Shown piece by piece: positions 4,186 through 61,934 of a stretch of DNA of 64,000 nucleotides. This DNA is from Coriobacteriia bacterium (GTDB taxonomy: Bacteria; Actinomycetota; Coriobacteriia; WRKU01). The notes beneath the pieces were generated by a model. That model ran no database searches. It was not told the DNA's origin and saw only the letters and a program-made list of their open reading frames with translations. The stretch's first letter is position 1; every line of letters starts with the position of its first letter. A program made the position numbers and the translations under genes. The stretch spans positions 16,554 through 80,553 of the forward strand of contig WRKU01000003.1 in assembly GCA_009777935.1 (NCBI GenBank). The letters run 5' to 3'.

Positions 4186-4228
4186 CACTGCGTTGTGTGA
4201 TTTTTGGCGGAGACATGAGGAGGGTTAC

Positions 4229-10200: not shown

Positions 10201-13066
10201 TCTTATCTCTGAAACCGATGCATTAGGCAAGACAAAATCTTATGAATATGATGCTCGCGGCCAGCTCTTAAGCATCCTCAATGAGCGCGGCGACAAGAAT
10301 ACCTTTACCTATGATGCTAACGGTAACGTTACCGCCACGCGTGATGCGCGCGGCGTCAAGATTGAATACAGCTATGACAAGCTCGATCGCCTCACCAAGG
10401 TCAAAGAGGATGGTGCTGACACCTCCTATACGTATGATGCGCTCGACAACTTGGCCAGCATTACCGACGGCAATGGCCATACTACTGCGTATACCTATGA
10501 TGAGGCGGGCAATCTCGCCTCTGTCACCAATCCTTTGGGCCAGACTCAGGCCTACGCTTATGACAGCGCACATCGCTTGAGCCGGTGGACGCAGCCAGAT
10601 GGTAGCGCCATTACTTATGACTACGATGCGATAGACCGGCTCACCGCACTTAACGTAGGCGATGAGGGTAGTGCACTCTACGCCTATGACGCAGACGGGC
10701 AGCGCACAACGATGAGTGATGCACACGGTGCCACAGAATATACGTATGATGAAGCCGGGCGCATGGCGACGATGACGACCAGTGAAGGTGAAGTCGTCGC
10801 TTATACTTACGACATCTACAGCAACTTAACTGAGCTTACCTACCCTGATGGCACGAGTGTACAGTACACGTATGACGCACTCGATCGCCTTATATCGGTA
10901 ATCGATCGCGCAGACGGTACCACCACCTACACCTATGATGGCAACGATAATGTGGTGCGCGTCGTGCGTGCTAACGACACCTCTGCTGCGCTCGAATATG
11001 ACGAACTTGACCGTATTGCAACACTCATAAACCACGGCGCTGACGGCAGCATCATCTCGCGCTTTGCCTACACCTATGATATGAGCGGCAATATCTTAAG
11101 TGAGCGCCGCACCCAAAATGATGTCGAGACATGGGCAGACTACGAATATGATGGGCGCGCTCAGCTTACTAAATCGACTGAAATTACCAATCTCGTCGTC
11201 ACTGAAACGACGTATAGCTATGACGGTGCCGGAAATCGTACCCGTCAAGAGATTAGGCGTGCTGGCTCCCTTGTAGACGCGATTGACTTTACCTATGACG
11301 GTGCTGATAAGCTCTTAGAGACGATAAGCACGGCTAATGGCACGACGACCTATGAGTACGATGAGCGCGGCAACCAGATTAGCAAGACGACCGCTGGCAG
11401 TATCGAGGAATATTCCTATGATACCCAAAACCGCCTTGAAGCAATCACGCGCGGCGGCACCCTGCTCTTTGCCGCCCTCTACGACGGGGACTCTAATCGT
11501 GTATTCACTGCCCAGCGCAATAGTGACGTGCACTGGCAAGAGATAACCGATGCGTCCGAAGAAGGCACATCTACTGGCAGTGGCCAAGATACTGAATCCG
11601 GTATCAACCGACCGTCGCTCTGGGCTTTTCTTTATGGATTTATGCACGGACTACTCCCGCGCTTTGTGCCTGACCCGCCTCACGGTGCTCTTACCATTCG
11701 CACCGGCTGGAGAGCCTATGAGATAGCCAACACCACGACCTATGAGCGTGTCGTGGATGCTGAAGATGGTAGAGGTGACACCGTCTTTATCCCTGAAAGT
11801 GTCGCTGATCTCTCTCGCAGGGATTACGAGATGGTGCGCTATCTCAACGACACCAACACTGAATACGCACGCACGCTCGTCGAATATGATCCACGTGGCA
11901 GAGCGCAGAGCATCTTTGAATATAGTCAAGGCCTTGAGCTGCTTGCTCATAGTAGTGCAGGGCGCGAGACCTATGCCTTTGATGGTAGAGGCTCGGTAGC
12001 TCACACGACCGATACACAAGGCAGATTACGGGCGTCTTATGAATACGACGTATTCGGGGCCGCTACCGTTACGGGGCTGAGCACCAACCCGTATACCTAC
12101 AACGCCGAGCGCACTGACCGCACCACCGGCATGCAATATCTGCGTGCGCGCTACTATGCGCCCGATGCAGGTCGCTTCATCACCGAAGACACCTATCGCG
12201 GGAAAGTCGGCGACCCCCTTACCCACAACCAGTATGCATATGTGGGCAACAATCCACTGCTCTACAACGACCCCAGCGGGCATATTTTCGGTGCAGTTGT
12301 CAATGCGGTCAAAAAGGTTGCAACGGCCGTCGTTACTACCGTCAAGAAGGTCGTGACCACGGTAGTTAATACGGTCGTTCGTGTAGTCAACGCTGTCGTC
12401 AATACCGTGAAAAATATCTATAATGCGGTGGTTGGCGGAGTGCAAGCAACATGGAATGGCGCCAAGCAGGCGGGCGCTACGATAGTAAACGGTGTGGTGC
12501 AAGGCGGTCAGTGGTTTGCCGACAAGGCAACCGCTGCCAGATATTGGGCAGTACAGCAACTCGAAGTCGCTCGCCGTGCCTTCTGCGACGGCCTTGAATA
12601 TGCTACAAAGCAGGCGAAAAATTTCGTGTCCAATGTTGACTGGGCGCGCGTCGGAGAAGGCGCTCTTAAGATTGGTTTGGCTGCCGTCACTGTTGTTGGT
12701 GCGGTTGGTGTAGTTGCCGCTTGTATTGCGACGGGTGGTGTGGCTCTTCCGCTTCTTGCGGCGGGAGCTGCGGGCACTGCCATTGCCTTTTCAGCGGGAG
12801 ATGCTATAGCTGGTGTGCAGGATGTTGGCTATGGCTTGCAAGGGAATACCGCTACGCCTGCGCTTGATCCAATCAAAGACGGACTATTTGCGGACAACCA
12901 AGACTTGTATGTTGGCGTAAAAGGTGCTGCCTCAGTCGGACTTTTTGTAACGGGCGTTGGTGCCGTAGCTGCTGCGCCAGCAGCAGGTGAGGCCATTGTT
13001 GGCCAAGCTCTTAAACCATTAACCAATGTCACAGTCGATCTTATAGATTCAGCATTTAGCAAGTAG
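4229..13066 (+). CDS. giant secreted Rhs/YD-repeat polymorphic toxin (WapA-like): signal peptide + unknown N-terminal region + LysM + YD-repeat shell + variable C-terminal tip
   Basis: The track ORF runs 4193-13066. I prefer ATG 4229 because GAGGAGGG lies 5-12 nt upstream. The N-terminus MHKYQRKVALFLVAVFVWSLIPAPAIA|AA looks like a Sec signal. There are dozens of YD repeats (..YxYDxxGNL/RxT..). The RHS core ends ...GMQYLRARYYAPDAGRFITEDTY...NNPLLYNDPSGH, followed by a 260-aa tip. Confidence 0.9.
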   Translation: MHKYQRKVALFLVAVFVWSLIPAPAIAAARDTVVNAQKARFNYPEIVTIDTGERTPRDPQLRAPKPDVDNEESEREFGPPVEVHEFEKVYQTGPRSYRSVFSQTPNTYKDRNGSEHEIDNTLIEKDPFLASPYLTNAANSYDVRIPLEITERRPITYTKDGFTIELAPLSGDYSTPVALDNAVLYNNVYEHMDVEYLVRETGVKESIIYNAHTDITSFSYALKAPSNLSVMQAGNTIEMFVPGDVSGEDEPLFVITAPYLFDANGAVSTDATMTLSGEGISYRVDVEIDEQWLSDPVRVFPVVLDPTVQTYVPTYVSLNEMAGRAWLQEHGYVGYVTEGVSGVVGGYLGRSRLILGPTDAHSSIPSVARIDKATLRMYQYKSMFNGAQFGAYRIRDPYDIDSITWAQATGLNREIAGSDAIRTSMIGWQNFDITEAVKYWNEGLAPNYGIMITPLDEWQEGGVFITPGSWPGVAGQGNMTTDMLPCILVDWIVPDPVSLEYPLNNTTIHLYPHIESHISGRLRFHGVLPAGVARPESIVRFALSDTSKGYTGNVQTSYSLKFPDSQGYEGNFPVQTTKYRDKLGNWQAPVPFTNFTFNDRYRISARATIDGVNFGTTRQSEEFVVYRVQQYDTLQKIANWYGIPINQIAFDNRVQDMLLVENNTLFIRNPQRNANNPYNPPPLDDEAKRRIDSMLMGRGLHCEFGFEPINLNTGNFFMEASDIVLDTGDDFFALNRTYNSKRSRYNSVFGRGWEFEYSQSLSRRENGNITYVRGDGSVVEFERTSDLSYRAPEGYHLTLTPIEVGTKNYTNVTRYTVVGDPWYNNYAPTIQTIPYPVYEYEIVDGADTAYRFSSAGMLKSVTNVRGEATTLEHDANGNITAIISPTGLVYSVQTTADGKIEVVTLPSGGTLRYVYNTLGDLVSYLDALGNTTHYRYDTDHRMISWSNGNGEMQIENVYDDEGRIIEQIDGNGGVSYLYYTIGSTVTIDAEGNKVTYHYDDQYRTLKVEYEDGTQETNTYENNLRASSTDRGGFTTHYEYDSNGNVTREVRFDGAARTYTYNEFSQLTQLIDFDGYTTEYIYDGAQNLIELIVAGTRQMSYTYDDKHRVLTQTDANGNVTAFTYEGLGKKPKTRTDAAGNTTTFFYDSMQQLTAVEDPLGNVSRIFYDQMGLKTGVQNATGATERYEFDAGSNLVGIVDANDDASTYSFDALGNMTRAADAYGDASTYTYDAVGNRIAATDADAHTTHFAYDAHGNITGITLPNGAVQTFSYDARDKVLETTDALGATTRYIYDERTGLTESITNELGATTTFEYSEVGLLLAEIDSTDARTSYEYDEKRQLIRMVEPDGRETIYHYDDVGNLTLEYDNTARVTSYTYNELNQLISVTDPLGNTTTYFYDVAGNLAESIDALGQVTRFAYDGAAQITALIDDLGHTVQLEYDALGNLAKTVDQLGHESSFTYDANNKMVTSTNEYGVTSTYRYSANEQLAEFVDPFGNSAYYTYNELGLTERIIDAHENEYHFEYDAAGNPTRQTSPNGATETREYDVLGRLFKGVSAAGLVTTHAYDSENRPIHSINSLGEEMTYEYDVIGNLITITDSYGRVMRYTYDRARNVVSVTEFDGNTIRYEYDLGDNLIKATDPLGVVTTYEYDAVGNLTSQVDDARRRWQYTYDTLGQLSDIKNPVGDIESFIYDAAGNITEHIDGKGNVRTIEYDVASQPIAEVDRRGNAATYTYDEIGRLIGQVAPDGGAQEYLYDALDNLVRVKDELNNVTMFEYDSVGNVTKTTQPTGAATLFDYDMSGNVVSKTDALDNVTTFSYDRAGRLTERIMPNEARYRYTYDLLGRLTQATSPGGLSKGYTYSARGDVIKQTDQAGRSVTYTYDTMHNVTSVTDALGHTSTYTYDKHSNLTSTLTPTGSQTRYSYDALDRLIGEVSPSGLSTRTLYDRAGNIERVTQTGGRTTNFAYDAESNITGITNALGHKRSFEYDVVGRLISETDALGKTKSYEYDARGQLLSILNERGDKNTFTYDANGNVTATRDARGVKIEYSYDKLDRLTKVKEDGADTSYTYDALDNLASITDGNGHTTAYTYDEAGNLASVTNPLGQTQAYAYDSAHRLSRWTQPDGSAITYDYDAIDRLTALNVGDEGSALYAYDADGQRTTMSDAHGATEYTYDEAGRMATMTTSEGEVVAYTYDIYSNLTELTYPDGTSVQYTYDALDRLISVIDRADGTTTYTYDGNDNVVRVVRANDTSAALEYDELDRIATLINHGADGSIISRFAYTYDMSGNILSERRTQNDVETWADYEYDGRAQLTKSTEITNLVVTETTYSYDGAGNRTRQEIRRAGSLVDAIDFTYDGADKLLETISTANGTTTYEYDERGNQISKTTAGSIEEYSYDTQNRLEAITRGGTLLFAALYDGDSNRVFTAQRNSDVHWQEITDASEEGTSTGSGQDTESGINRPSLWAFLYGFMHGLLPRFVPDPPHGALTIRTGWRAYEIANTTTYERVVDAEDGRGDTVFIPESVADLSRRDYEMVRYLNDTNTEYARTLVEYDPRGRAQSIFEYSQGLELLAHSSAGRETYAFDGRGSVAHTTDTQGRLRASYEYDVFGAATVTGLSTNPYTYNAERTDRTTGMQYLRARYYAPDAGRFITEDTYRGKVGDPLTHNQYAYVGNNPLLYNDPSGHIFGAVVNAVKKVATAVVTTVKKVVTTVVNTVVRVVNAVVNTVKNIYNAVVGGVQATWNGAKQAGATIVNGVVQGGQWFADKATAARYWAVQQLEVARRAFCDGLEYATKQAKNFVSNVDWARVGEGALKIGLAAVTVVGAVGVVAACIATGGVALPLLAAGAAGTAIAFSAGDAIAGVQDVGYGLQGNTATPALDPIKDGLFADNQDLYVGVKGAASVGLFVTGVGAVAAAPAAGEAIVGQALKPLTNVTVDLIDSAFSK
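6104..6235 (+). other. LysM peptidoglycan-binding domain within the Rhs protein
   Basis: YRVQQYDTLQKIANWYGIPINQIAFDNRVQDMLLVENNTLFI matches the LysM pattern (Y.V..GDTL..IA..Y.v....l...N.l....l..Gq.L.I). Confidence 0.7.
12038..12283 (+). other. RHS repeat-associated core end (autoproteolytic DPxG[LH] boundary)
   Basis: YEYDVFGAATVTGLSTNPYTYNAERTDRTTGMQYLRARYYAPDAGRFITEDTYRGKVGDPLTHNQYAYVGNNPLLYNDPSGH. DPSGH is encoded at 12269-12283. In Rhs/WapA proteins this motif demarcates core from toxin. Confidence 0.85.
12284..13063 (+). other. Rhs C-terminal variable (toxin) domain, no recognisable enzymatic motif; Val/Thr/Asn-rich helical repeats followed by Gly/Ala-rich hydrophobic segments
   Basis: The domain opens with IFGAVVNAVKKVATAVVTTVKKVVTTVVNTVVRVVNAVVNTVKNIYNAVVGGV... 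It continues with GALKIGLAAVTVVGAVGVVAACIATGGVALPLLAAGAAGTAIAFSAG and GAASVGLFVTGVGAVAAAPAAGEAIVG. I saw no nuclease, deaminase or ADP-ribosyltransferase-type catalytic signature. Confidence 0.6.
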
Positions 13067-21927: not shown

Positions 21928-22049
21928 CAGTGACCCATTGGTGGAACAAAAATGGAGGCGACAGTTGCTAGAGAGTTAGGAGAGACCACTCTCGAGTTTA
22001 CGGTTTGATACTTGCTCTTCTGAGTTCATTGGATATTATGAGGTGGGAT

Positions 22050-22664
22050 ATGCGAGATAGCAGATGGATTGTAGCCGCGGTATTGTTTGGGGTAATTTTG
22101 ATGATTGTTGGCTGTAGCGATAGAGCAAAACCAGAATATAAAGAGATAACTATCGGCCAAGATGTTGCAGATGTAACACTATCGGGTGGCAAGCAATTAT
22201 TATCAATACGAATATCAGGTTGCTATTATTATCGTGAACCTAATGGTCATGTGGTTTTAGTAACGACACGTGATGGAAAAACAATCACAGCGGCGGTCGT
22301 CTATTCTGTCGACAGAGATTTGGTGTACAGCAAGGGCGTTGGCGTTGTTGATGAGAGCAGCAATCTTGATGACTATATAGGTCAACCGTTTGGTGTTCTT
22401 AAGCGAGAGTTTGGGCCACCACCCCTTGATCTTGGCAGTGGCTTCTATATACCAGCATATTTCACCAATCGGGGAAACCTTGTGACCTTTGGATCGCATG
22501 CTAGCCTATCAGAAGATTCGAACTCCGCAAGAACGAATTTGGCCCATCTGAACGCTACAATTATTACAGGCTATATCCGAAGGATTAATTCTCAATATGT
22601 CAGTTGTACTGCGCTGAAGAACATCGGACAACAATTACTCACCAACTTACCTTATTTCAAATAA
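22050..22664 (+). CDS. putative lipoprotein whose 3' end was replaced by the 89-bp repeat read out of frame
   Basis: ATG 22050 is preceded by GAGGTGGG. MRDSRWIVAAVLFGVILMIVGC has a signal peptide plus a lipobox-like IVGC. From about 22516 the reading frame crosses repeat copy 2 in a different frame from copy 1 and runs on 60 nt past it. Confidence 0.5.
   Translation: MRDSRWIVAAVLFGVILMIVGCSDRAKPEYKEITIGQDVADVTLSGGKQLLSIRISGCYYYREPNGHVVLVTTRDGKTITAAVVYSVDRDLVYSKGVGVVDESSNLDDYIGQPFGVLKREFGPPPLDLGSGFYIPAYFTNRGNLVTFGSHASLSEDSNSARTNLAHLNATIITGYIRRINSQYVSCTALKNIGQQLLTNLPYFK
22516..22604. repeat. 89-bp direct repeat, copy 2
   Basis: See 18034-18122. Confidence 0.9.
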
Positions 22665-34751: not shown

Positions 34752-36596
34752 ATGTGCGGTTTTGTGGGATTTATCGGTGATACCAATGATCGAGATGCTG
34801 TTCTCGACGCTATGTCGACATCGATTGCACACCGCGGACCCGACGATCAAGCGACCTTCACCGACGATTATCTCGCGCTGGCCTTTCGCCGCTTGAGCAT
34901 CATCGACCTCGAAGGTGGCTCACAGCCGATATTCAACGCCGACAACACGAAGCTTATCGTCTTCAATGGTGAAATCTACAACTACCGAGAACTGCGCACC
35001 GAGCTCGAAGCTCTCGGCTATCGTTTTCGGACAAACACCGATGTTGAGACGGTACTGGCAGGTTATGAGGCTTATGGGTGGGACGTGCTCACCAAACTGC
35101 GCGGCATGTGGGCTTTCGTTATCTATGATCTTGAGACCAAGGAGCTCGTTGGTGCACGCGACTACTTCGGCATCAAGCCGCTGTACTACTATCAGCCGCA
35201 AGCGGGGAAGAACCCTCTTCTCTTTGGGAGCGAAATCAAGGCCTTTACAAAGCATCCGGCATTTACGGCACAGGTCAACACGGAGGTCCTCGGCAGCTAT
35301 CTGAACTTTGGTTTCGTGCCGGGTACCGACTCAATGTTTGCCGGCGTCAAGAAGGTGCCGCCGGGCTCATATTTCACGTATGTAGAAGGAAAACTGGCGT
35401 TCACGCGTTACCATACGCACGCGTTTCAGGCCGACGAGGCGAAGATGTTTGACGAGTGGGTCGACCTTATCGACATAACGGTAAAAGACAGCGTAAAGTA
35501 TCACAAAATCAGCGACGTCGAGGTGGGAAGCTTTCTATCCAGCGGCATCGACTCCAGCTACGTGGCTAAGTTAGGTAACGATATCGGTGACCTGCGCACC
35601 TTTAGCGTGGGATATCAGGAAAAGCAGTACAGCGAGCTACCGTATGCTCAGGCGTTTGCTGCGCGATACGATCTACAAAACTATGCAAAAGAAATCACCG
35701 GCGACGAATACTTTGGTATTGCTGAGAAGGTCGCCTATCACCTTGACGAGCCACTTGCGGACCCATCCTGCCTCTCGCTCTACTTCGTATGTAAAAATGC
35801 AGCCGAGCACGTCAAAGTAACCTTATCGGGAGAAGGTGCCGATGAACTGTTCGCCGGCTACAACCCGTATCGTGACGGGTTGCGTATGGATCGGTATCAG
35901 AGGGTGCCGCTCGCACTACGGAAACTCGCCGCAACAGTGGCCCGAATGTTGCCCGATCGCACACTTCATAAAGAGTTTTGGATTCGTGGCGCAAAACCTC
36001 TTGAAGAACGTTATTTCCAAGCAGGAAACTTCATCTTTGAGTCAAAAGAATTGCCCTCTGTCCTAAACGTGACCAATACGGTGACACCGGAGCAGATTGT
36101 CGCGCCTTTTTACGAGGGAACGGAAGGCGCCGATACCGTAAGCCGCATGCAAACTATCGACCTCAATGTGTGGATGCCGGGAGACATACTACTTAAGGCA
36201 GACAAGATGAGCATGGCGAACTCGCTGGAGGCGCGTACGCCATTTCTCGACATCGAGATCCTAAAACTTGCGCAGCAGATTCCCGCTCGCAATAAGGTGT
36301 CGAAGGAGAGTACTAAGATATCGCTTCGTGCTGCGGCGCGTCGGGAAATCGATGATGCCACTGCCGCCAAAAAGAAACTTGGCTTTCCGGTGCCTTTGCG
36401 CGATTGGTTGCGCCGTGATGAATACTACCGGCACGTTAAAGAGGCTTTTAGTGGCGAAGCCGCCGCACAGTACTTTAATGTGGCGTATCTGAACAAACTT
36501 CTCGAAGACCATCGGTCGGGCAAGCAGGATACCTATCGCAGAATCTGGGCGGTGTACATGTTTCTTCTCTGGCACAAACAATTTATCGAAACGTAG
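34752..36596 (+). CDS. asnB: asparagine synthase (glutamine-hydrolysing) family amidotransferase
   Basis: The true start is MCGFVGFIGD (ATG 34752, AGGAGGAAG upstream), giving the N-terminal nucleophile Cys2. Also RGPDD, GEIYNY and SGGIDSS (here LSSGIDSS) PP-loop motifs. The track ORF 34233-36596 has a spurious 5' extension overlapping murG. Confidence 0.9.
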   Translation: MCGFVGFIGDTNDRDAVLDAMSTSIAHRGPDDQATFTDDYLALAFRRLSIIDLEGGSQPIFNADNTKLIVFNGEIYNYRELRTELEALGYRFRTNTDVETVLAGYEAYGWDVLTKLRGMWAFVIYDLETKELVGARDYFGIKPLYYYQPQAGKNPLLFGSEIKAFTKHPAFTAQVNTEVLGSYLNFGFVPGTDSMFAGVKKVPPGSYFTYVEGKLAFTRYHTHAFQADEAKMFDEWVDLIDITVKDSVKYHKISDVEVGSFLSSGIDSSYVAKLGNDIGDLRTFSVGYQEKQYSELPYAQAFAARYDLQNYAKEITGDEYFGIAEKVAYHLDEPLADPSCLSLYFVCKNAAEHVKVTLSGEGADELFAGYNPYRDGLRMDRYQRVPLALRKLAATVARMLPDRTLHKEFWIRGAKPLEERYFQAGNFIFESKELPSVLNVTNTVTPEQIVAPFYEGTEGADTVSRMQTIDLNVWMPGDILLKADKMSMANSLEARTPFLDIEILKLAQQIPARNKVSKESTKISLRAAARREIDDATAAKKKLGFPVPLRDWLRRDEYYRHVKEAFSGEAAAQYFNVAYLNKLLEDHRSGKQDTYRRIWAVYMFLLWHKQFIET

Positions 36597-36627
36597 CGAG
36601 CGTTTTAGGTGGCATCTCGTGGCTCGC

Positions 36628-36656
36628 TTGACAGGGGCAACAGGTGGTGCTATTAA
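36628..36656 (+). promoter_or_regulatory. sigma-70-type promoter of the amt-PII gene
   Basis: TTGACA (36628-36633), an exact 17-nt spacer, TATTAA (36651-36656). Confidence 0.6.
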
Positions 36657-36657
36657 T

Positions 36658-36704
36658 AGGTTAGACGGCAAAGGTGCTGTGGACGAAAGTCTACAGCACT
36701 TTTT
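36658..36704 (+). promoter_or_regulatory. nitrogen-leader module 1a: conserved box + antiterminator/terminator pair
   Basis: The box AGGTTAGACGGCAAAGGTGCTGTGG (36658-36682) is nearly identical to 39500-39523. A 5-bp hairpin ACGGC/GCTGT with hexaloop AAAGGT (36665-36680) overlaps an 11-bp terminator stem (36674-36684 / 36689-36699, GAAA loop) followed by TTTTT (36700-36704). Confidence 0.6.
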
Positions 36705-36776
36705 CTGTTAAGGCTCCTCGGAGAGCGGTTGGCTCAAGGAACCGACTGGCGTCATGCGAATCATCGATTCGCGCAA

Positions 36777-36831
36777 CGTACAAAGGTGTGCGCTTTTCTG
36801 CCGATAGTGGCAGCAAAGCACACACCTTTTT
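36777..36831 (+). promoter_or_regulatory. nitrogen-leader module 1b: second AAAGGT hairpin + long terminator
   Basis: A 5-bp hairpin CGTAC/GTGCG with the same hexaloop AAAGGT (36777-36792) overlaps a ~21-bp imperfect stem (36782-36802 / 36809-36829, 2 mismatches) ending in a T-run. It lies 20 nt upstream of the amt RBS and ATG. Confidence 0.55.
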
Positions 36832-36851
36832 CTATGAAAGGATGGTGGACT

Positions 36852-38588
36852 ATGGATTTTGGTATTTGGTTTTTGCTTGCAGCAGCGCTGGTGTTCTTCA
36901 TGCAATGTGGTTTCATGATGCTAGAGGCGGGCTTCACGCGCGCAAAGAACGCCGGCAACATCATCATGAAGAACATGATGGACTTCTCGATGGGGACGAT
37001 TGCCTTTCTTTTGATTGGCTACACGCTCCTGACTGCTCAGAACTATGCGTTTGGATTTATCGGCGTGCCGAATCTGGGGATATTTACTGATTTTAGCAAC
37101 TTTGACTTCTCAGATTTTGTGTTTAATTTGGTATTCTGTGCCACGGCCGCAACTATCGTGACAGGTGCCATGGCCGAACGCACCAAGTTTAGCGCCTACT
37201 GCATCTACAGCATCGTCATATGTGCGGTCATATACCCGATTCAAGCAGGATGGGTATGGAACGAGAGTGGCTGGCTCGCACAGCTGGGCTACATCGATTT
37301 TGCGGGCTCTTCGGCGATTCATATGGTGGGCGGCATCTCTGCGTTCATTGGCGCGGCGATGCTCGGCCCGCGTATTGGCAAGTACACGATAGATAGAGCC
37401 ACGGGAAAGACTATCGTGAACGCAATTCCCGGCCACTCGCTGACGCTGGGTGCTCTGGGCTGCTTTGTTCTGTGGTTCGGCTGGTACGGGTTTAACGGTG
37501 CCGCTGCGACGAGCGTCTCACAGCTCGGCTCGATATTTGTGACGACAACGTTGGCTCCGGCCGCCGGTGCGGTGACGACTATGTTGTTCACGTGGGTAAA
37601 GAACGGTAAGCCCGACGTATCTATGACGCTTAACGGTGCGTTGGCGGGTCTCGTGGGTATCACCGCCGGTACTTCCAATGTGGATGCACTCGGTGCACTC
37701 ATCATCGGTTCTGTCGCCGGCATTATCGTCGTCGTTGCCGTCGAGTTTATTGACATCAAGCTGCGTGTCGACGACCCCGTCGGCGCGGTAGCAGTACACG
37801 GTGTCAATGGCGTGTGGGGTACGTTGGCCGTCGGTCTCTTTGCGACGCCTATCGTGGCGGGAGGCGATGTCATTTCGGATGCGACCGGTCTGTTTTATGG
37901 AGGCGGCTTTGAACAGCTGGGCATACAGGCGCTGGGCGTGTCGTCGATTGCTCTGTGGACTGCCGTTACGATGACCGTTGTCTTTTTCCTGATTCAGAGA
38001 GCGCACGGTTTACGTGCATCGGCAGAAGAAGAGATCCTGGGCCTCGATGCAACCGAGCATGGTTTGATCAGCAGCTACGCCGACTTCCTGCCGGTCACCA
38101 ATCCCAGCTTGCAGGTGTTGGGTGGCAGAACTGAGGGAGCGGCTGAGGGGACAACGGCGATGCCGGTTACCCCGGAGGTTACCCCGGAAAAGGCCGTTCC
38201 GGTTACCGATATATCGACCGGCCAAAAGCTCACTAAGGTGACGATTATCACCAAGGCGAGCACGTTCGATGATCTGAAGGATGCCCTCGATGCGATTGGT
38301 ATTACCGGCCTTACCGTCACCAACGTGATGGGCTATGGTCAGCAGAGGGGTCGCCAGTCGACTTATCGTGGGGTGCCGCTGCAGTCTAGCCTGTTGCCGA
38401 AGATTAAGGTTGACATTGTAGTCAGCAAGGTGCCGGTCCATCAAGTCGTCGAGACGGTCAAGGATGTACTGTACACCGGTCACATAGGTGACGGTAAGAT
38501 ATTTGTCTCTGACGTTGAAAACGTTATCAAGGTGCGGACCGGCGAGGAAGGTTACGCTGCCTTGCAGGATACGGTTCTGTCCGGTTAG
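36852..38588 (+). CDS. amt: ammonium transporter (Amt) fused to a C-terminal PII (GlnK/GlnB-like) signal-transduction domain
   Basis: Start ATG 36852 with AAGGA 9 nt upstream (track start 36729 lies in the leader). Amt motifs: DFAGSSAIHMVGG, LWFGWYGFNG, VDDPVGAVAVHGVNGVWG, GLDATEHG. After a ~45-aa Pro/Thr/Glu linker comes a complete PII domain (next feature). Confidence 0.9.
   Translation: MDFGIWFLLAAALVFFMQCGFMMLEAGFTRAKNAGNIIMKNMMDFSMGTIAFLLIGYTLLTAQNYAFGFIGVPNLGIFTDFSNFDFSDFVFNLVFCATAATIVTGAMAERTKFSAYCIYSIVICAVIYPIQAGWVWNESGWLAQLGYIDFAGSSAIHMVGGISAFIGAAMLGPRIGKYTIDRATGKTIVNAIPGHSLTLGALGCFVLWFGWYGFNGAAATSVSQLGSIFVTTTLAPAAGAVTTMLFTWVKNGKPDVSMTLNGALAGLVGITAGTSNVDALGALIIGSVAGIIVVVAVEFIDIKLRVDDPVGAVAVHGVNGVWGTLAVGLFATPIVAGGDVISDATGLFYGGGFEQLGIQALGVSSIALWTAVTMTVVFFLIQRAHGLRASAEEEILGLDATEHGLISSYADFLPVTNPSLQVLGGRTEGAAEGTTAMPVTPEVTPEKAVPVTDISTGQKLTKVTIITKASTFDDLKDALDAIGITGLTVTNVMGYGQQRGRQSTYRGVPLQSSLLPKIKVDIVVSKVPVHQVVETVKDVLYTGHIGDGKIFVSDVENVIKVRTGEEGYAALQDTVLSG
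38226..38585 (+). other. PII domain of the Amt-PII fusion
   Basis: KLTKVTIITKASTFDDLKDALDAIGITGLTVTNVMGYGQQRGRQSTYRGVPLQSSLLPKIKVDIVV...TGHIGDGKIFVSDVENVIKVRTGEEG. It has a T-loop with Tyr (STYRG) and the GDGKIFV signature. Confidence 0.85.
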
Positions 38589-38680: not shown

Positions 38681-39469
38681 ATGAAAAAAGTACTCACTAT
38701 TGCCGGTTCTGATACGAGTGGCGGGGCCGGCATACAGGCCGACCTAAAGACCTTTCAGGAGCTGGGCGTCTACGGCATGAGCGCACTGACCGTTATCGTA
38801 ACCATGGATCCCGACGGTTGGAGCCATCAGGTCTTTCCCGTTGAACCCGCTCTTGTTGAGGCACAGCTTGCCACCGTTATTGAAGGTATCGGTGTCGATG
38901 CGATGAAGACCGGTATGCTCCCGACCGGCGAACTTATCGAACTCGTTGCCCGGCAGATTAAAACGCACAGTCTTGAGAAGGTCGTTGTCGACCCTGTGAT
39001 GGTCTGCAAGGGCGCAGGTGAGCCGGTCAATCCGGGAAATACCGTTTGCTACCGGGATGCTCTCGTTCCTCTGGCAACGGTCGTGACGCCGAATCTCTTT
39101 GAGGCCTCCCAGCTCAGCGGCGTGGAAGCGATTGAGACCATCGATGACATGAAAGAGGCCGCCGGCATTATTTGCGAGTCGGGCGTCGAGGTCGTCGTGG
39201 TGAAAGGTGGCAAGGGCATTGATGCGCACAACGCCGTTGACGTCATGTACGATGGCACGACCTTCGAGATTCTTGAGAGCGAGCGAATCGATACGCCGAA
39301 TACACACGGTGCCGGCTGCACGTTTGCGGCGGCTATCGCGGCGAGGCTTGCGCATGGCGACACGATACCCGAGGCGGTGCGCACCGCTAAGACATTCGTT
39401 ACCGAAGCAATCCGTCATTCGTTTAGGCTCAACCAGTATGTTGGCCCCTTAAACCACGGACGAGTTTGA
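38681..39469 (+). CDS. ThiD-family kinase (hydroxymethylpyrimidine/phosphomethylpyrimidine kinase or PdxK-type pyridoxal kinase)
   Basis: 262 aa with LTIAGSDTSGGAGIQADLKTFQELGVYGMSALT, VVDPVMVCKG, TPNLFEA and THGAGCTFAAAIAA motifs of the ribokinase-like ThiD/PdxK family. Confidence 0.85.
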   Translation: MKKVLTIAGSDTSGGAGIQADLKTFQELGVYGMSALTVIVTMDPDGWSHQVFPVEPALVEAQLATVIEGIGVDAMKTGMLPTGELIELVARQIKTHSLEKVVVDPVMVCKGAGEPVNPGNTVCYRDALVPLATVVTPNLFEASQLSGVEAIETIDDMKEAAGIICESGVEVVVVKGGKGIDAHNAVDVMYDGTTFEILESERIDTPNTHGAGCTFAAAIAARLAHGDTIPEAVRTAKTFVTEAIRHSFRLNQYVGPLNHGRV

Positions 39470-39495
39470 CACATCGGGCGCACAGTGGTAAAAAT
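39466..39495 (+). promoter_or_regulatory. sigma-70-type promoter of type III glnA
   Basis: TTGACA (39466-39471), a 17-18-nt spacer, then TAAAAAT (39489-39495). Same layout as the amt promoter. Confidence 0.55.
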
Positions 39496-39499
39496 GATT

Positions 39500-39548
39500 A
39501 GGTAGACAGCAAAGGTGCTGTGGGCGGATACGCTCACGGCGCTTTTTT
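39500..39548 (+). promoter_or_regulatory. nitrogen-leader module 2: conserved box + antiterminator/terminator pair
   Basis: Box AGGTAGACAGCAAAGGTGCTGTGG (39500-39523). A 5-bp hairpin ACAGC/GCTGT with hexaloop AAAGGT (39506-39521) overlaps a 12-bp terminator stem (39515-39526 / 39531-39542, GATA loop, 3 G-U pairs) followed by TTTTTT (39543-39548). The RBS GGGAGGGAG and ATG 39566 follow directly. Confidence 0.6.
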
Positions 39549-39565: not shown

Positions 39566-41674
39566 ATGAAAGCTGCTTCGACAAAGACCGTTCCCGAACT
39601 CTTCGGAAGCATGGTGTTTAGCGACACCGTTATGCAAACGCGCCTCCCTGAGGACGTGTATCGCGCACTGAAAAAGACGATGTCGCAGGGTACGCACCTT
39701 GAGCTCGACGTGGCAAATGTGGTTGCCAACGCTATGAAGGACTGGGCTGTTGAGAAAGGCGCCACCCATTTCACGCACTGGTTCCAGCCGATGACCGGCA
39801 TGACCGCCGAGAAGCACGACAGCTTTATCTCGCCGACGGGCGACGGCAAGGTCATCATGGAGTTCTCCGGCAGCGAGCTCGTACGCGGTGAGCCGGACGC
39901 ATCGAGCTTCCCCTCAGGCGGCCTACGCGCTACGTTCGAGGCGCGTGGTTATACCGTCTGGGATATCACCTCGTACGCTTTTATCAAGGATGGCACCCTC
40001 TGCATCCCGACCGCGTTTTGCTCGTATAGTGGCGAGGCGCTCGATAAGAAGACGCCACTGTTGCGTTCGATGGAGGTTATCGATAAGCAGGCGTTGCGCA
40101 TCCTGAGGCTTTTCGGCAACGATACGGCACAGCGCGTCATCACGACCGTCGGGCCGGAGCAAGAATACTTCCTCGTTGACAAGGAGCTCTACGCGCGGCG
40201 CCCCGATATCCGCTACAGTGGCCGCACCTTGTTCGGCGCGCGTGCTCCGAAGGGCCAAGAGCTCGACGACCACTACTTCGGCAGCTTAAAGCCACGCGTT
40301 TCGGCGTTTATGCGTGATCTCGAAGAAGAGTTGTGGAAACTCGGCGTCTATGCCAAGACCAAGCACAACGAGGTTGCTCCGGCACAGCACGAGCTGGCAC
40401 CGATATTTACGACGACAAACATCGCAACCGACCAAAACCAGCTGACGATGGAGATGCTCAAGATTGTGGCAGACCGCCATAACCTTGCCTGTCTGCTGCA
40501 CGAAAAGCCGTTTGCCGGTGTTAACGGCAGTGGCAAGCACAACAACTGGTCGATTTCGACCGATACGGGCATCAACCTGTTAGAACCAGGCGAAACCCCG
40601 TATGAAAACGCTCAGTTCCTCCTATTCCTCGTGGCCATCATCAAGGCGATCGACGAGTATCAGGATTTGCTGCGAGTCTCTGCGGCAAACGCCGGAAACG
40701 ACCATCGGCTTGGCGCGAACGAAGCACCACCGGCTATCGTCTCGATATTCCTCGGCACCGAGCTTACCGACGTGCTGGAGGCACTCGAATCCGGCGCAGA
40801 CTACAGCGATGCGGAAAAGGCCCAGATGGAGGTTGGGGTAACGGTGTTGCCGCACTTCCCGAAGGACACGACCGACCGCAACCGCACCTCGCCGTTTGCC
40901 TTTACCGGCAACAAGTTCGAGTTCCGTATGCTCGGCTCGTCGTTTTCGATCGCCGGCCCCAATATTGTGCTCAACACGATAGTCGCCGAGGTTTTGGGCG
41001 AGTTTGCCGATAGCCTTGAGCAGTCCTCCGATTTCAAGAGCGACTTAGCGGCACTTATTAAAACGACGTTCAGCGAGCATAAGAGAATCGTCTTCAACGG
41101 CGACAACTACTCTGACGGATGGGTTGCCGAGGCGGAAAAGCGCGGGCTGTCGAACCTGCGGACGACACCCGATGCGCTGCCGGCGTTCGTCGAGCCCAAA
41201 AGCATCGAGGTCTTTACTAAGCACGGCATCTTTACCGAGGCCGAACAGCGGTCGCGCTACGAGATTTTGCTGGAAGACTACAGCAAGGCAATCAACATCG
41301 AGGCACTGACGATGGTTGACGTGGTGAAGGGCAAGATAATACCGGCCTGCATCGACTACCAGATCGATATCGTCACACTTCTCCAGCGCAAAAAGCAGGC
41401 GTGCGGCACACACGATATGACGCTTGAGGATCAGCTGCTCAACAGCATCTCGAAGCTGTCCGGTAGCATGGCGAAGAAGTTGGCTGCTCTCGAAAAAACA
41501 CTTCTTGTCGCTAAGGAGAACGATGAGGATGCGCTTGCCGAGGCATGCTACTATCGTGACAAGGTGTTCAGTGCGATGTCAGAGCTGCGGCTTGTCGTCG
41601 ACGAACTCGAGATGCTCGTATCTGACAAGTATTGGCCGCTGCCTTCGTACGCGGAGCTGCTCTATAGCGTGTAG
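39566..41674 (+). CDS. glnA: glutamine synthetase, type III (~700 aa form)
   Basis: 702 aa from ATG 39566 (track start 39515 lies in the leader). The size and sequence (..[23 protein letters not shown].., [52 protein letters not shown]) fit the GSIII family known from Bacteroides and anaerobes. Confidence 0.9.
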
Positions 41675-43075: not shown

Positions 43076-44425
<1,350 letters not shown>

Positions 44426-58687: not shown

Positions 58688-60357
58688 CGTGATCTCTCCT
58701 GCAACCTCTCACGCATTCCCTCAATCGCAGCTTGCACCAGCTCTCGAAAGAGAGGGTGGGGTCGGTTAGGGCGGCTCTTAAACTCGGGGTGGAACTGCAC
58801 ACCGACGAAGAACCGATTTCCGGGTACCTCAATCGCCTCGACGAGGCTGTCGTCTGGCGATACGCCACCGATGACAAGCCCGGCCTCTACGAGACGTTCT
58901 CGATACTCGTTATTGAACTCGAACCGATGACGATGCCGCTCGTAGATGCACGTTACCTCTTGCAGGCACGGCTCCTGGCCATAAGCTTGCTCTAACAATG
59001 ACTCGGCCGCCACTACACATGGGTAGGCACCGAGGCGCATCGTGCCGCCGCTGCCCACCATGCCGACTTGGCCGGGCATATAGTCGATAACGCAGTGGGG
59101 AGCCTGTTCGTCAAACTCGCTTGAATGTGCGCCGATAAGGCCGCCCACGTGACGTGCAAACTCGATGACCGCAACCTGCATGCCGAGGCAAATACCCAGA
59201 AATGGCACGTCGTTTTCACGCGCATAGCGACATGCGATAATCTTGCCCTCGACGCCGCGTTCGCCAAACCCTCCCGGGATAACTACGCCGTCAACGTCAC
59301 CCAGCAGGCGTGCGACAGATTCGTCGGTCACATCCTCGCTGTCCACCCAGCGAATATCGACTCTCGTGCCGGTCGCAAAGCCCGCATGATTCAGGCTCTC
59401 GATAATGGACAGATAGGCATCGTTGAGCTGAACGTATTTCCCAACGACTGCGATCGTGACCTGCGTCGTACGCGCTTCGATAGCCTGCATCATCGCACGC
59501 CACTCGTCCAAATCCGGTGCAGGAACATCAAGCCCCAGCTCACGACAGACGATATCGTCTAGTCCGTTATCGTGCAACATGAGCGGTGCCTCGTACAGAG
59601 ACGCAACGCTTGTATTTTCGATGACGCAATCGACATCAACATTGCAGGAACGCGCGATCTTGTCTCTGAGACCGTTCTTCAGAGGCTCGTCGGTACGCGC
59701 TACGATGATATGCGGAGCAATACCGGCCGAGCGCAGTTCGCTGACCGAGTGCTGGGTAGGCTTCGATTTTTGCTCTGCTGCAGATTTGAGGTAGGGAACG
59801 AGCGTCACATGGACGAAGAGACAGTTCCCGCGTCCTGCTTCAAGCGATATTTGACGGATAGCTTCGAGGAATGGCTGTATCTCGATGTCGCCTGCGGTCC
59901 CGCCAATCTCGGTGATAATAACATCGGCGTTGCTCTCGGCAGCCCTTGCATAGATGAAGTTTTTAATCTCGTCGGTGATGTGAGGGATGACCTGCACCGT
60001 ACCGCCTTCGTAGCCACCGGCACGCTCACGGTTGAGTACGTTCCAGTACACCTTTCCTGAGGTAAGATTGCTGAGTTTCGTTAGGTCCTCGTCGATAAAA
60101 CGTTCGTAATGGCCCAGATCGAGGTCGGTCTCGGCGCCATCATCGGTGACGAATACCTCGCCGTGCTGAAGCGGGCTCATCGTGCCAGGGTCGATGTTCA
60201 TATAGGGGTCGAGTTTTTGAGCCGCGACCTTGAGGCCGCGTTGTTTGAGCAGTCTGCCCAATGAGGCCGCCGTAATCCCTTTACCCAGCCCTGAAACAAC
60301 GCCTCCCGTTATGAAGATGTACTTGGTCGGGGTACTCACGTCGGCACCTACTCCCAC
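58678..60357 (-). CDS. pyrG: CTP synthase
   Basis: [50 protein letters not shown]. Confidence 0.95.
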
Positions 60358-61934
60358 TCCACCGTCGCCGGGGGCTTTGACGTGATGTCGTACACGACGC
60401 GGCTTATTGCAGGAACCTCGCCGGTGATGCGCGAGGATATGCGACGCAGCACGTCATGCGGAAGCTCAGCATATTCGCAGGTCATGAAGTCATCGGTCGT
60501 TACTGCACGGATGGCAACCACCTTATCGTAGGTGCGGTCGCTGCCCTTCACTCCGGTCGAGCAGGTGTCGGTCAACACAACGAAGTACTGATCCGGCTTT
60601 AAGGTGGAGAGGTTTGCTGCACCGCCAGAAGCCGTGTCGGTACCAGCAATGCCGTCCAACTCCTCACGCAGGATGGCATCGGCGGCGCGTAAGATGTCCA
60701 ACTTCTCGGCCGTCACCTCTCCCATGATGCGCACGGCGAGCCCCGGCCCGGGGAAGGGCTGGCGGTGTATCAGCGACGGAGGCAAGCCAAGCTTTTCCCC
60801 CAGCGTACGCACTTCGTTCTTGAACAGTCCGGCGAGCGGTTCAACGATACCGGTAAAGGCCAGCTTCTCAGGAAGTCCACCCACGTTGTGGTGGCTCTTA
60901 ATCGTCGCACTCTCGTCCGAACAGCTCGACTCGATGACATCGGAATATATCGTCCCTTGTGCCAAAAAGGGAATGTCACCGAGCTTGCGTGCCTCCCCTT
61001 CAAGGACGCGGATAAACTCTTCACCGATGCGCATACGCTTCGTCTCGGGGTCGGTCACGCCTTTGAGCCGCGCGAGAAAGCGTTCTTCGGCGTTAACGCG
61101 GATAAAGCGCACATCTCGTTGCGAAAACACCTCTTCAATCTCGTCTCCTTCGTGTTGACGCATGAGGCCATGGTCGATAAAGATGCAGGTGAGCTGGTCC
61201 GGCACGGCCTTTGAGAGCAGACTTGCGCATACCGAAGAGTCGACTCCGCCGGAAAGCGCGAGGAGTACCTGCTCGCTGCCAACTTGACGGCGTATCTGCT
61301 CGATTTGCTCGTCGATAACATCGTCGAGGCGGTAATCACCCGATGCACCGCATATGTTGTAGAGGAAGTTGCGGATAATCTCTTGCCCGTGTACTGTGTG
61401 TTTCGTTTCGGGATGAAACTGCACGCCGTAGAGGTTGCGCGTCGCGTCCTCGCACGCCGCGATGCAGGTCGGGCTTTTTGCTGTCACACGAAAACCCTCT
61501 GGCAGACGTGCGACCATATCACGATGGCTCATCATGACGACAGACGGCTCCTGCACTTCGTCGAGCAACCGTGAAGCATTGCCCTCAGACGCCTCGGGCG
61601 TCATCGTGATGCGTCCGAACTCGCCGACCGGTGCCGCAACGACCTCACCGCCCAACATGTGGCATATCATCTGCATGCCGTAGCAGATACCCAGAACCGG
61701 AATACCGAGCGCGAACACGGCAGGGTCACACAGCGGAGCCTGCGAATCATAGACGCTGCCCGGCCCGCCCGACAAAATGATGCCGATGGGGTTGAGCCGC
61801 TTAATCTCGTCGGCCGACAGCGCACCCGCGTGTATCTCGGCGTAGACGGACAGCCCTCTAACGGCATGAGCGATAAGCTCCTTATATTGGCAGCCAAAAT
61901 CGAGCACTAACACCAGCTCATTTCTCTTGCTCAT
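60348..61934 (-). CDS. guaA: GMP synthase (glutamine-hydrolysing)
   Basis: [38 protein letters not shown]-loop and a C-terminal ...PPATVEWE. Confidence 0.95.

Follow-up and report, generated by a model that had tools for sequence, protein, structure and literature searches.

Genes and leaders of the nitrogen cluster

This analysis concerns two untranslated leaders in a 64,000-nucleotide (nt) stretch of contig WRKU01000003.1 (positions 16,554 to 80,553, assembly GCA_009777935.1), hereafter the window, from a metagenome-assembled genome (MAG) labelled Coriobacteriia bacterium. The leaders lie in a cluster of nitrogen genes (Table 1). One precedes amt-PII, which encodes an ammonium transporter fused to a PII domain, and the other precedes glnA, which encodes a type III glutamine synthetase (GS). 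Together they carry three copies of a module in which a small hairpin with a six-nucleotide loop shares sequence with an intrinsic terminator. With a probability of roughly 80%, these modules are protein-dependent transcription attenuators of the ANTAR type that control ammonium uptake and assimilation. The observations behind this reading are the mutual exclusivity of the two structures, the conservation of the module and covariation of its stem, the nitrogen genes that follow it, the association with ANTAR genes in relatives, and the match to the RNA site of the Geobacter regulator GnfR. Within the cluster, the 412-amino acid (aa) open reading frame (ORF) that follows glnA had no Pfam match at E <= 0.001.

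Table 1. Positions of genes and predicted RNA and promoter elements around the amt-PII and glnA leaders (window coordinates), with the comparison loci that encode ANTAR proteins.
Feature	Position	Strand	Details
asnB, glutamine-hydrolysing asparagine synthase	stop at 36596		upstream of amt leader
Putative sigma-70 promoter, amt-PII leader	36628-36656	+	TTGACA 36628-36633, 17-nt spacer, TATTAA 36651-36656
Module 1a antiterminator hairpin	36665-36680	+	ACGGC-AAAGGU-GCUGU; -5.4 kcal/mol; predicted protein-binding site
Module 1a terminator	36670-36704	+	stem 36670-36703, 15 bp, GAAA loop, U5 tail; -22.6 kcal/mol
Spacer between modules 1a and 1b	36705-36776	+	local stems, including the perfect 7-bp hairpin
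Perfect 7-bp hairpin	36756-36772		GCGAAUC-AUC-GAUUCGC; -7.2 kcal/mol; 4 nt before module 1b
Module 1b antiterminator hairpin	36777-36792	+	CGUAC-AAAGGU-GUGCG; -4.9 kcal/mol
Module 1b terminator	36782-36831	+	stem 36782-36829, 19 bp, two single-base interruptions, GAUAGU apex; -29.4 kcal/mol
amt-PII, ammonium transporter fused to PII domain	36852-38588	+	578 aa; start codon 36852; Pfam PF00909, PF00543
Phosphomethylpyrimidine/pyridoxal kinase gene	38681-39469		between amt-PII and glnA
Putative promoter, glnA leader	39466-39495	+	TTGACA, 18-nt spacer, AAAAAT; 10/12 matches in promoter scan
glnA-leader antiterminator hairpin	39506-39521	+	ACAGC-AAAGGU-GCUGU; -6.1 kcal/mol
glnA-leader terminator	39511-39548	+	39511-39546 plus U6; 16-bp stem, GAUA loop; -25.5 kcal/mol; overlaps hairpin
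glnA, type III glutamine synthetase	39566-41674	+	702 aa; start codon 39566; Pfam PF12437, PF18318, PF00120
ORF, 412 aa	41777-43015		between type III glnA and gdh, mid nitrogen gene cluster
Glutamate dehydrogenase gene (gdh)	43094-44425
ANTAR ORF loci (23)			L006, L012, L024, L027, L029, L032-L034, L036, L040, L041, L043, L046, L056, L057, L061, L064, L066-L068, L075, L078, L092

Structure of the three modules

Each module combines a 5-base-pair (bp) hairpin, with the loop AAAGGU, and a strong intrinsic terminator whose 5' arm is made up of that loop and the hairpin's 3' arm. Before amt-PII, two modules stand in tandem, beginning at 36665 (module 1a) and 36777 (module 1b), and the third precedes glnA at 39506. 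An initial annotation of the sequence had proposed all three and had described hairpin and terminator as mutually exclusive, which the sequence common to both structures bears out in every module. Both elements of module 1a lie where that annotation put them, with a terminator stem of 15 bp rather than 11 bp, a count that includes A-U pairs with the U-run. The hairpin of module 1b overlaps a terminator ahead of amt, as described, and the module before the type III glnA is likewise present with hairpin and overlapping terminator. The U-run of terminator 1b (36827-36831) ends 21 nt before the amt start codon, and a homologous terminator occurs in three related loci (L081, L082 and L086). Hairpin 1a and the glnA hairpin differ solely by a G-U pair that has become A-U in the stem. 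A 20-nt box, AGACRGCAAAGGTGCTGTGG, occurs exactly twice in the window, at 36663-36682 and 39504-39523, against a chance expectation of 0.02.

Predicted energies range from -4.9 to -6.1 kcal/mol for the hairpins and from -22.6 to -29.4 kcal/mol for the terminators, so that termination should be the default state on thermodynamic grounds; hairpins too weak to win unaided are the hallmark of protein-stabilized antiterminators. The amt leader as a whole folds far better than shuffled sequences (z = -8.1). Given that its two hairpins are 112 nt apart and that each has its own terminator, they are read as two attenuators in series and not as the paired hairpins, P1 and P2, of canonical ANTAR targets.

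The spacer between modules 1a and 1b forms local stems, among them the perfect 7-bp hairpin that the initial annotation reported. These stems are not conserved in two of three close relatives: the spacers of L081 and L082 are only ~20-30 nt long, unrelated in sequence and devoid of the 7-bp hairpin. The third relative, L086 (79% identical), has GCGAAUC-GUU-GAUUUGC at 1763-1779, 4 nt before its module b, with one C-to-U change that keeps the pairing. The 7-bp hairpin occupies the position expected of P1 but carries a triloop. By this comparison, the spacer stems appear to be lineage-specific and no general part of the device.

Both leaders carry putative promoters just upstream of their first hairpin. 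The initial annotation described the sequence at the head of the amt-PII leader as near-consensus; it is present and its -35 box is perfect, yet the wording was generous, given that the -10 box matches at only 4/6 positions and lacks the final T. It does not appear in the list returned by the promoter scan. Eight nt separate its -10 box from the base of hairpin 1a, in agreement with the placement of clear promoters in related loci, and the -10 box of the glnA leader ends 10 nt before its hairpin. Transcription would accordingly start just before the promoter-proximal hairpins. Between the asnB stop codon and the -35 box lies an inverted repeat (GCGAGC...GCUCGC, 36597-36628; 6 bp, ~20-nt loop) without a U-run, and asnB transcripts may therefore enter the amt leader and end at terminator 1a, which may thus also stop read-through from upstream.

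Conservation and covariation across relatives

The comparative set comprised 80 loci that encode relatives of amt-PII in species-representative genomes, which together with the window gave 81 sources. A loose scan sought A..G.. hexaloop hairpins of at least 4 bp whose 3' arm pairs into a downstream hairpin followed by a U-run. The commonest loops were AAAGGC, AAGGGC, AAUGGC, AAAGGG and AAAGAC, giving the tighter pattern AANGRN with an invariant C-G closing pair. A strict scan for C-AA.G[GA].-G hexaloop hairpins of at least 4 bp that overlap a terminator returned 128 modules in 60 of the 81 sources, 125 of them beyond the window and 101 on the amt strand. They gather at fixed places, two of them upstream of amt, at 100-260 nt and at ~2.3 kb, and another on the opposite strand, ahead of divergent operons; where checked (e.g. 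L024), the ~2.3 kb site precedes a type III GS gene upstream of amt. Modules lie within 330 nt of amt in 44 sources, in 13 of which two stand in tandem with loop-to-loop distances of 62-112 nt, the window having the longest spacing.

Selecting hairpins by their pairing makes any test of that pairing circular, and the bare 8-mer CAA.G[GA].G was therefore searched as a non-circular test. It occurs 89 times upstream of amt, in 59 loci, and the next four flanking positions pair at 90, 92, 76 and 60% of these occurrences, with a mixture of A-U, G-C, C-G and U-A pairs, whereas the figure is ~40% for the 1773 copies of the 8-mer elsewhere. An alignment of 110 sites contained 188 cells changed on both sides of the stem versus 45 ± 10 in shuffles, and the pairing collapsed once the 3' partner was slid by one to three columns. 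The consensus of these sites is RC-AANGRN-GY, with flanks that are not conserved.

A covariance model was built from the sites of other genomes only, with the window left out. It recovered the glnA hairpin at 21.3 bits (E = 0.004) and hairpin 1a at 17.8 bits (E = 0.036), and gave hairpin 1b 12.8 bits (E = 0.8). The stem of module 1b is of a 'YAC...GUR' type that is typical of the amt-proximal module elsewhere, 'cac' preceding the loop in 25 of 44 such modules. The sole other match in the window with E below 0.1, at 22323-22351 (ACAGC-AAGGGC-GUUGG, 19.2 bits, E = 0.014), lies inside an ORF (22005-22664), lacks a terminator and was rejected as chance. In the amt-proximal module of L082 (78% identical; ~9413-9428), the loop is GAUGGC, with G at the otherwise invariant first position and with stem and terminator intact.

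An exact-match scan of metagenomes with the 20-mer box returned 12 sites. Six have a promoter and a terminator and, where the contig is long enough, precede amt (L090, L094 and L097) or a type III GS gene (L092, in which an ANTAR ORF lies ~8 kb from the box). The other six, about as many as chance would give, have no terminator and are surrounded by coding-like sequence, and the scan returned no further operons of the same organism.

The genes that follow the modules are those of nitrogen assimilation. Among the first genes downstream of the 63 non-amt modules, 30 encode glutamine synthetases (23 of type III) and 20 encode proteins with a glutamate-synthase-type GATase_2 domain; the remainder include CTP synthase, SAICAR synthase, AsnA, AsnB and Gdh. 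The predicted regulon is thus GS, glutamate synthase (GOGAT) and amt. The nitrogen link drawn in the initial annotation from amt-PII and the type III GS gene of the window extends in relatives to GS, GOGAT and amt, and the further occurrences (125 modules across the 80 loci examined), nitrogen-gene enrichment and compensatory stem changes that it had suggested looking for were found in these relatives. Together, the comparative data point to a real and widely conserved nitrogen switch in Clostridia.

ANTAR proteins encoded beside the modules

The initial annotation had also proposed a search for ANTAR genes, which succeeded in relatives and returned none in the window itself. The search used a hidden Markov model (HMM) made from seed sequences, and Pfam confirmed all six of the hits that were checked. 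Of the 80 related loci, 22 have a gene for an ANTAR-domain protein of ~190 aa within 10 kb of amt, and modules are present in all 22. In 16 of these, the gene lies on the same strand downstream of a module, and the annotated operons have the orders module-GS-ANTAR-PurF-like (L024) and module-gltB-gltD-GS-ANTAR (Ruminococcus flavefaciens, L066). The ANTAR gene usually follows directly after a gene for a 425-aa GS-I-like protein, and no histidine kinase gene was seen in the two annotated operons.

The L024 protein has receiver, coiled-coil and ANTAR domains and is homologous to Rv1626 and EutV over its full length. The phospho-acceptor Asp of the receiver is replaced in all 23 ANTAR proteins (Table 1), by Asn in 16 and by Gly, Tyr, Glu or Ser in the others, and all 23 have His at the position of Tyr164 of EutV, which stacks on G4 (Phe in Rv1626). 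The module-linked proteins thus appear from their sequences to be a pseudo-receiver, non-phosphorylatable subfamily. With the acceptor Asp missing, the signal is probably delivered by a partner protein and not by phosphorylation, as in the AmiC-AmiR pair; the co-encoded GS-like protein and PII are candidates for this role. The regulator of the window's modules is probably of the NitR kind, like those encoded next to the same modules in related Clostridia.

Relationship to known antitermination systems

The hairpins recognized by ANTAR regulators have hexaloops in which position 1 is A and position 4 is G (A1/G4), and the 3' arm of the terminator-proximal hairpin also forms part of the terminator (PMC3369936, PMC3369931). 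The likeness to such targets that the initial annotation noted, an A1/G4 hexaloop overlapping a terminator, holds and is strengthened by the comparative data, ANTAR genes lying beside the same modules in 22 of the 80 loci. Ramesh et al. (2012, PMC3369931) reported nitrogen genes downstream of most of the ANTAR targets that they predicted, and matches in Table S2 of that study lie before genes for an ammonium transporter (C. thermocellum), PII (Ethanoligenens) and glutamine synthetase (Caldicellulosiruptor and Alkaliphilus).

The closest described site is that of GnfR, an ANTAR response regulator of Geobacter sulfurreducens that binds RNA carrying CAGGCAAGGGCGCC (Ueki & Lovley 2010, PMC2995071). 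Its consensus, CAGGCAANGGCGCC, overlaps terminators before nifH, nifEN, glnK and amtB (PMC2995071). This consensus describes the same hairpin as that of the window, a GGC/GCC stem around an AANGGC hexaloop, which lies just upstream of a terminator and overlaps it in nitrogen-gene leaders, including that of glnK-amtB. By direct count, ACGGCAAAGGUGCU and ACAGCAAAGGUGCU of the window match the GnfR consensus at 10/14 positions, and every mismatch either keeps pairing or sits at loop position 6, which is U here and C in Geobacter. The 48-nt GnfR probe also appears, from its sequence, to carry a single site (PMC2995071). The two systems differ in that Geobacter uses sigma-54 promoters and a phosphorylatable GnfK/GnfR pair, whereas the promoters here look sigma-70-like and no phospho-acceptor Asp is present in the module-linked ANTAR proteins of related Clostridia; moreover, the amt leader has two modules in series, unlike GnfR sites, and the host is a Clostridia-like MAG from termite gut.

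NitR, an ANTAR protein encoded beside glnA in Clostridium saccharobutylicum, is described in a citing paper as inducing GS and GOGAT genes by antitermination under nitrogen limitation (PMC6316151). In C. thermocellum, an ANTAR gene lies in a GS-GOGAT cluster, and an Amt-PII fusion is also encoded there (PMC4676874). The NitR gene order of C. saccharobutylicum and C. acetobutylicum, GS followed by the ANTAR gene (Stutz et al. 2007, as cited in PMC6316151 and PMC4676874), recurs beside modules in L024, L066 and other relatives. The Clostridium system also includes an antisense RNA. A nitR-like gene lies beside GS in the Clostridium system and was not found in the 64-kb window.

The targets of EutV, NasR and AmiR share with the window an A1/G4 hexaloop, a 3' arm within the 5' arm of the terminator and a nitrogen theme, and the closing pairs are alike (AC...GU in eutP P1, RC...GY here). 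The modules differ from them in lacking P1, in having the promoter abut the hairpin and in a more constrained loop (AANGRN). Antitermination by BglG, SacY and LicT at ribonucleic antiterminator (RAT) and co-antiterminator (CAT) sites follows the same logic, in that a protein stabilizes a weak antiterminator hairpin overlapping a terminator. However, the RAT element is a ~29-nt stem with internal loops that is recognized through the stem, serves sugar operons and is bound by PRD-domain regulators, none of which is found here.

These comparisons assign the window elements to a mechanism and a type of site that have been described before, the GnfR/NitR-type nitrogen attenuator. The suggestion in the initial annotation that they might be a distinct, undescribed attenuator is therefore not supported: the same hairpin type was published for GnfR (PMC2995071), matches in Clostridia are listed in Table S2 of PMC3369931, and antitermination by NitR is cited in PMC6316151.

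A single hexaloop in place of P1 and P2

Canonical ANTAR targets have two hexaloop hairpins a few nt apart, with a linker of 5-12 nt in eut (PMC3369931), and altering P1 or the linker abolishes antitermination by EutV (PMC3369931, PMC8934654). The initial annotation had remarked that this tandem arrangement was not evident, and the same is true across the family. P1 was searched for by eye and by script, upstream of the modules and inside the terminators, and candidates were found only at chance level. P1-like A1/G4 hexaloop hairpins of at least 3 bp lie within 45 nt upstream of 18 of the 128 modules (14%), compared with 10.6-12.3% for random or shuffled sequence, and a second hexaloop hairpin lies inside the terminator of 16 (12.5%), about chance. 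The only P1 candidate in the window is a 3-bp hairpin, uuaAUAGGUuag, that overlaps the -10 box.

Sigma-70-like promoters lie just upstream of 67 of the 128 modules, versus 2% at random positions, and 63 of these 67 have only 5-13 nt between the end of the -10 box and the hairpin, which places the hairpin at the very 5' end of the transcript. The remaining 61 modules have no promoter within 70 nt, for example those between GS III and amt.

Two further features were seen near or within individual modules. In Ruminococcus-like genomes, an AGCGCU/AGCGCA element lies 12-25 nt before the amt-proximal module (L070, 1620-1640; L071, ~9855-9870; L066, L058 and L029). In L066, L058 and L029, its stem is weak or absent, whereas L070 and L071 have a clean A1/G4 hexaloop hairpin there, 12-15 nt upstream and equivalent to a canonical P1. 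The canonical form thus exists in this family as an exception. The terminators of a few leaders carry an A1/G4 hexaloop hairpin at their own apex, as in L072 (~9852-9905, uugcAAAGGCgcag), L081 (~9933-9950, cugccAAUGAUggcgg) and L031.

A EutV dimer contacts one hexaloop, and the minimal motif was redefined as a single hexaloop (Walshe et al. 2022, PMC8934654). The same authors still assign P1 a recruitment role during transcription, expect single-hexaloop sites only outside the timing limit that a transcribing polymerase sets, and call for bioinformatics on such sites (PMC8934654). The promoter-proximal single-hexaloop modules may constitute a distinct and widespread class of ANTAR attenuators in Clostridia, bound by non-phosphorylatable NitR-like proteins (Asn for Asp, His for Tyr), for which one hexaloop at the 5' end suffices for co-transcriptional antitermination; this is a tentative proposal, given somewhat less than even odds. 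In such a class, nitrogen could be sensed by the GS-like protein encoded alongside, whose effect on the pseudo-receiver would resemble that of AmiC on AmiR.

Proposed mechanism and alternative explanations

Under the ANTAR attenuator reading, transcription would start a few nt before each promoter-proximal hairpin. By default, the nascent RNA would fold into the terminator and transcription would stop before amt-PII or glnA. When nitrogen is limiting, a NitR-like ANTAR dimer of this organism would grip the hexaloop hairpin (RC-AANGRN-GY) as it emerges. Because the first half of the terminator stem consists of the hairpin's loop and 3' arm, binding would withhold them: with the first ~11 nt of its 5' arm sequestered, the terminator could not form and RNA polymerase would read through. 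The response would thus be on under nitrogen limitation, and the two gates in series of the amt leader would give a tighter off state and a steeper response.

Several results weigh against this reading. The P1 hairpin that canonical ANTAR targets require a few nt upstream is missing, and module 1b scores weakly in the covariance model (12.8 bits, E = 0.8). No ANTAR gene lies within 10 kb in 58 of the 80 related loci. The HMM search of the window's six-frame ORFs found none either, and a matching 88-kb ENA contig (L084), retrieved through the ORF at 292-1905, has none in the 6.7 kb by which it extends further upstream; the GS III gene led only to a 5.6-kb JGI contig, and no record was retrieved for amt-PII or the ORF at 60348-61934. 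The regulator of this particular organism is thus deduced from its relatives.

These same gaps, in ANTAR genes near the modules and in P1 relative to the EutV model, leave some room for a different factor to work the hairpin/terminator switch, either a non-ANTAR RNA-binding protein, for example one associated with PII or GS, or no factor at all, through kinetic trapping or polymerase pausing. This is unlikely, in that the loop follows the A1/G4 rule of ANTAR targets and agrees with the GnfR site, and ANTAR genes are greatly enriched beside the modules and sit within the operons that they control. A hairpin of -5 kcal/mol, moreover, cannot beat terminators of -23 to -29 kcal/mol unaided.

A small-molecule riboswitch, for example one that senses glutamine, with the hexaloop hairpin as part of its ligand pocket, would suit the nitrogen context, and glutamine riboswitches exist in other phyla. 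It is nonetheless very improbable. Rfam returned no match at the gathering score in the whole window, and at E <= 10 the region 36550-36900 gave only spurious sub-threshold matches to microRNA, small RNA and long non-coding RNA families. The conserved unit spans ~16 nt, a short stem and six loop bases between unconserved flanks, and stands at the 5' end of the transcript, which leaves too little RNA for a ligand pocket.

Similarly little credence attaches to a DNA operator, in which the inverted repeat would bind a repressor at the transcription start and the terminators would be incidental. The box does lie at about +1 to +20 of the predicted promoters and its stems are palindromic. However, the stems vary while their complementarity is kept and the asymmetric loop is conserved, the opposite of the pattern of protein-DNA half-sites; the 61 of 128 modules without a nearby promoter lie between genes; and the terminator overlaps the hairpin in the same register in every module.

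The least credible alternative is that the terminators simply end transcripts of asnB and the kinase gene and that the box is a chance or duplicated, non-regulatory sequence. Their positions ~75-110 nt past the asnB stop codon (terminator 1a) and ~40-80 nt past that of the kinase gene (glnA leader) would allow this. However, a promoter separates each upstream gene from its module, module 1b stands 21 nt ahead of the amt start codon, chance would give the 20-mer repeat 0.02 times, modules precede amt, GS or GOGAT in 60 of 81 sources whatever gene lies upstream, and the conserved hairpin and regulon would be left unexplained. As a separate point, the motif AAAGGUG was considered as a Shine-Dalgarno mimic and rejected, given loops such as AAGGGC and AAUGGC in relatives.

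Host assignment and other features of the window

The amt-PII protein is identical to one from a MAG labelled 'Coriobacteriia bacterium', and its nearest relatives (66-79% identity) are mostly from Oscillospiraceae and other Clostridia; identical genes were found on termite-gut metagenome contigs. Despite the Coriobacteriia label, the amt-PII protein, the modules and the gene neighbourhood resemble those of Oscillospiraceae and other Clostridia. Several close relatives carry implausible labels (Deltaproteobacteria, Fibromonadales and archaea), a sign that termite-gut MAGs may have been wrongly binned or labelled, or that genes have moved horizontally among them. The host is best described as an uncultured, Clostridia-like termite-gut bacterium. 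Elsewhere in the window, a 2957-aa ORF (4193-13066) looks like an Rhs-type toxin, its homologue on the matching contig L084 being annotated with DUF6531, RHS-repeat and YD-shell domains, and a run of small ORFs follows it.

Implications

For the window alone, the modules appear to be ordinary members of a described mechanism. More broadly, they annotate a regulatory RNA that current libraries miss, Rfam being empty here, and that, in many Clostridia of gut and rumen (Ruminococcus, Oscillospiraceae and Lachnospiraceae) and in MAGs labelled Treponema, appears to control ammonium uptake, GS and GOGAT. The comparative data tie a large set of promoter-proximal single-hexaloop sites to a non-phosphorylatable ANTAR subfamily. 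If a single hexaloop at the 5' end does suffice, this would contradict the need, derived from EutV, for a P1 'recruitment' hairpin at a fixed short distance whenever the timing is set by a transcribing polymerase. The EutV-RNA structure raises the question whether antitermination during transcription can work with one hexaloop or always requires a recruitment hairpin, and the ~130 comparative sites form a natural testing ground for it, in organisms that drive nitrogen recycling in animal guts.

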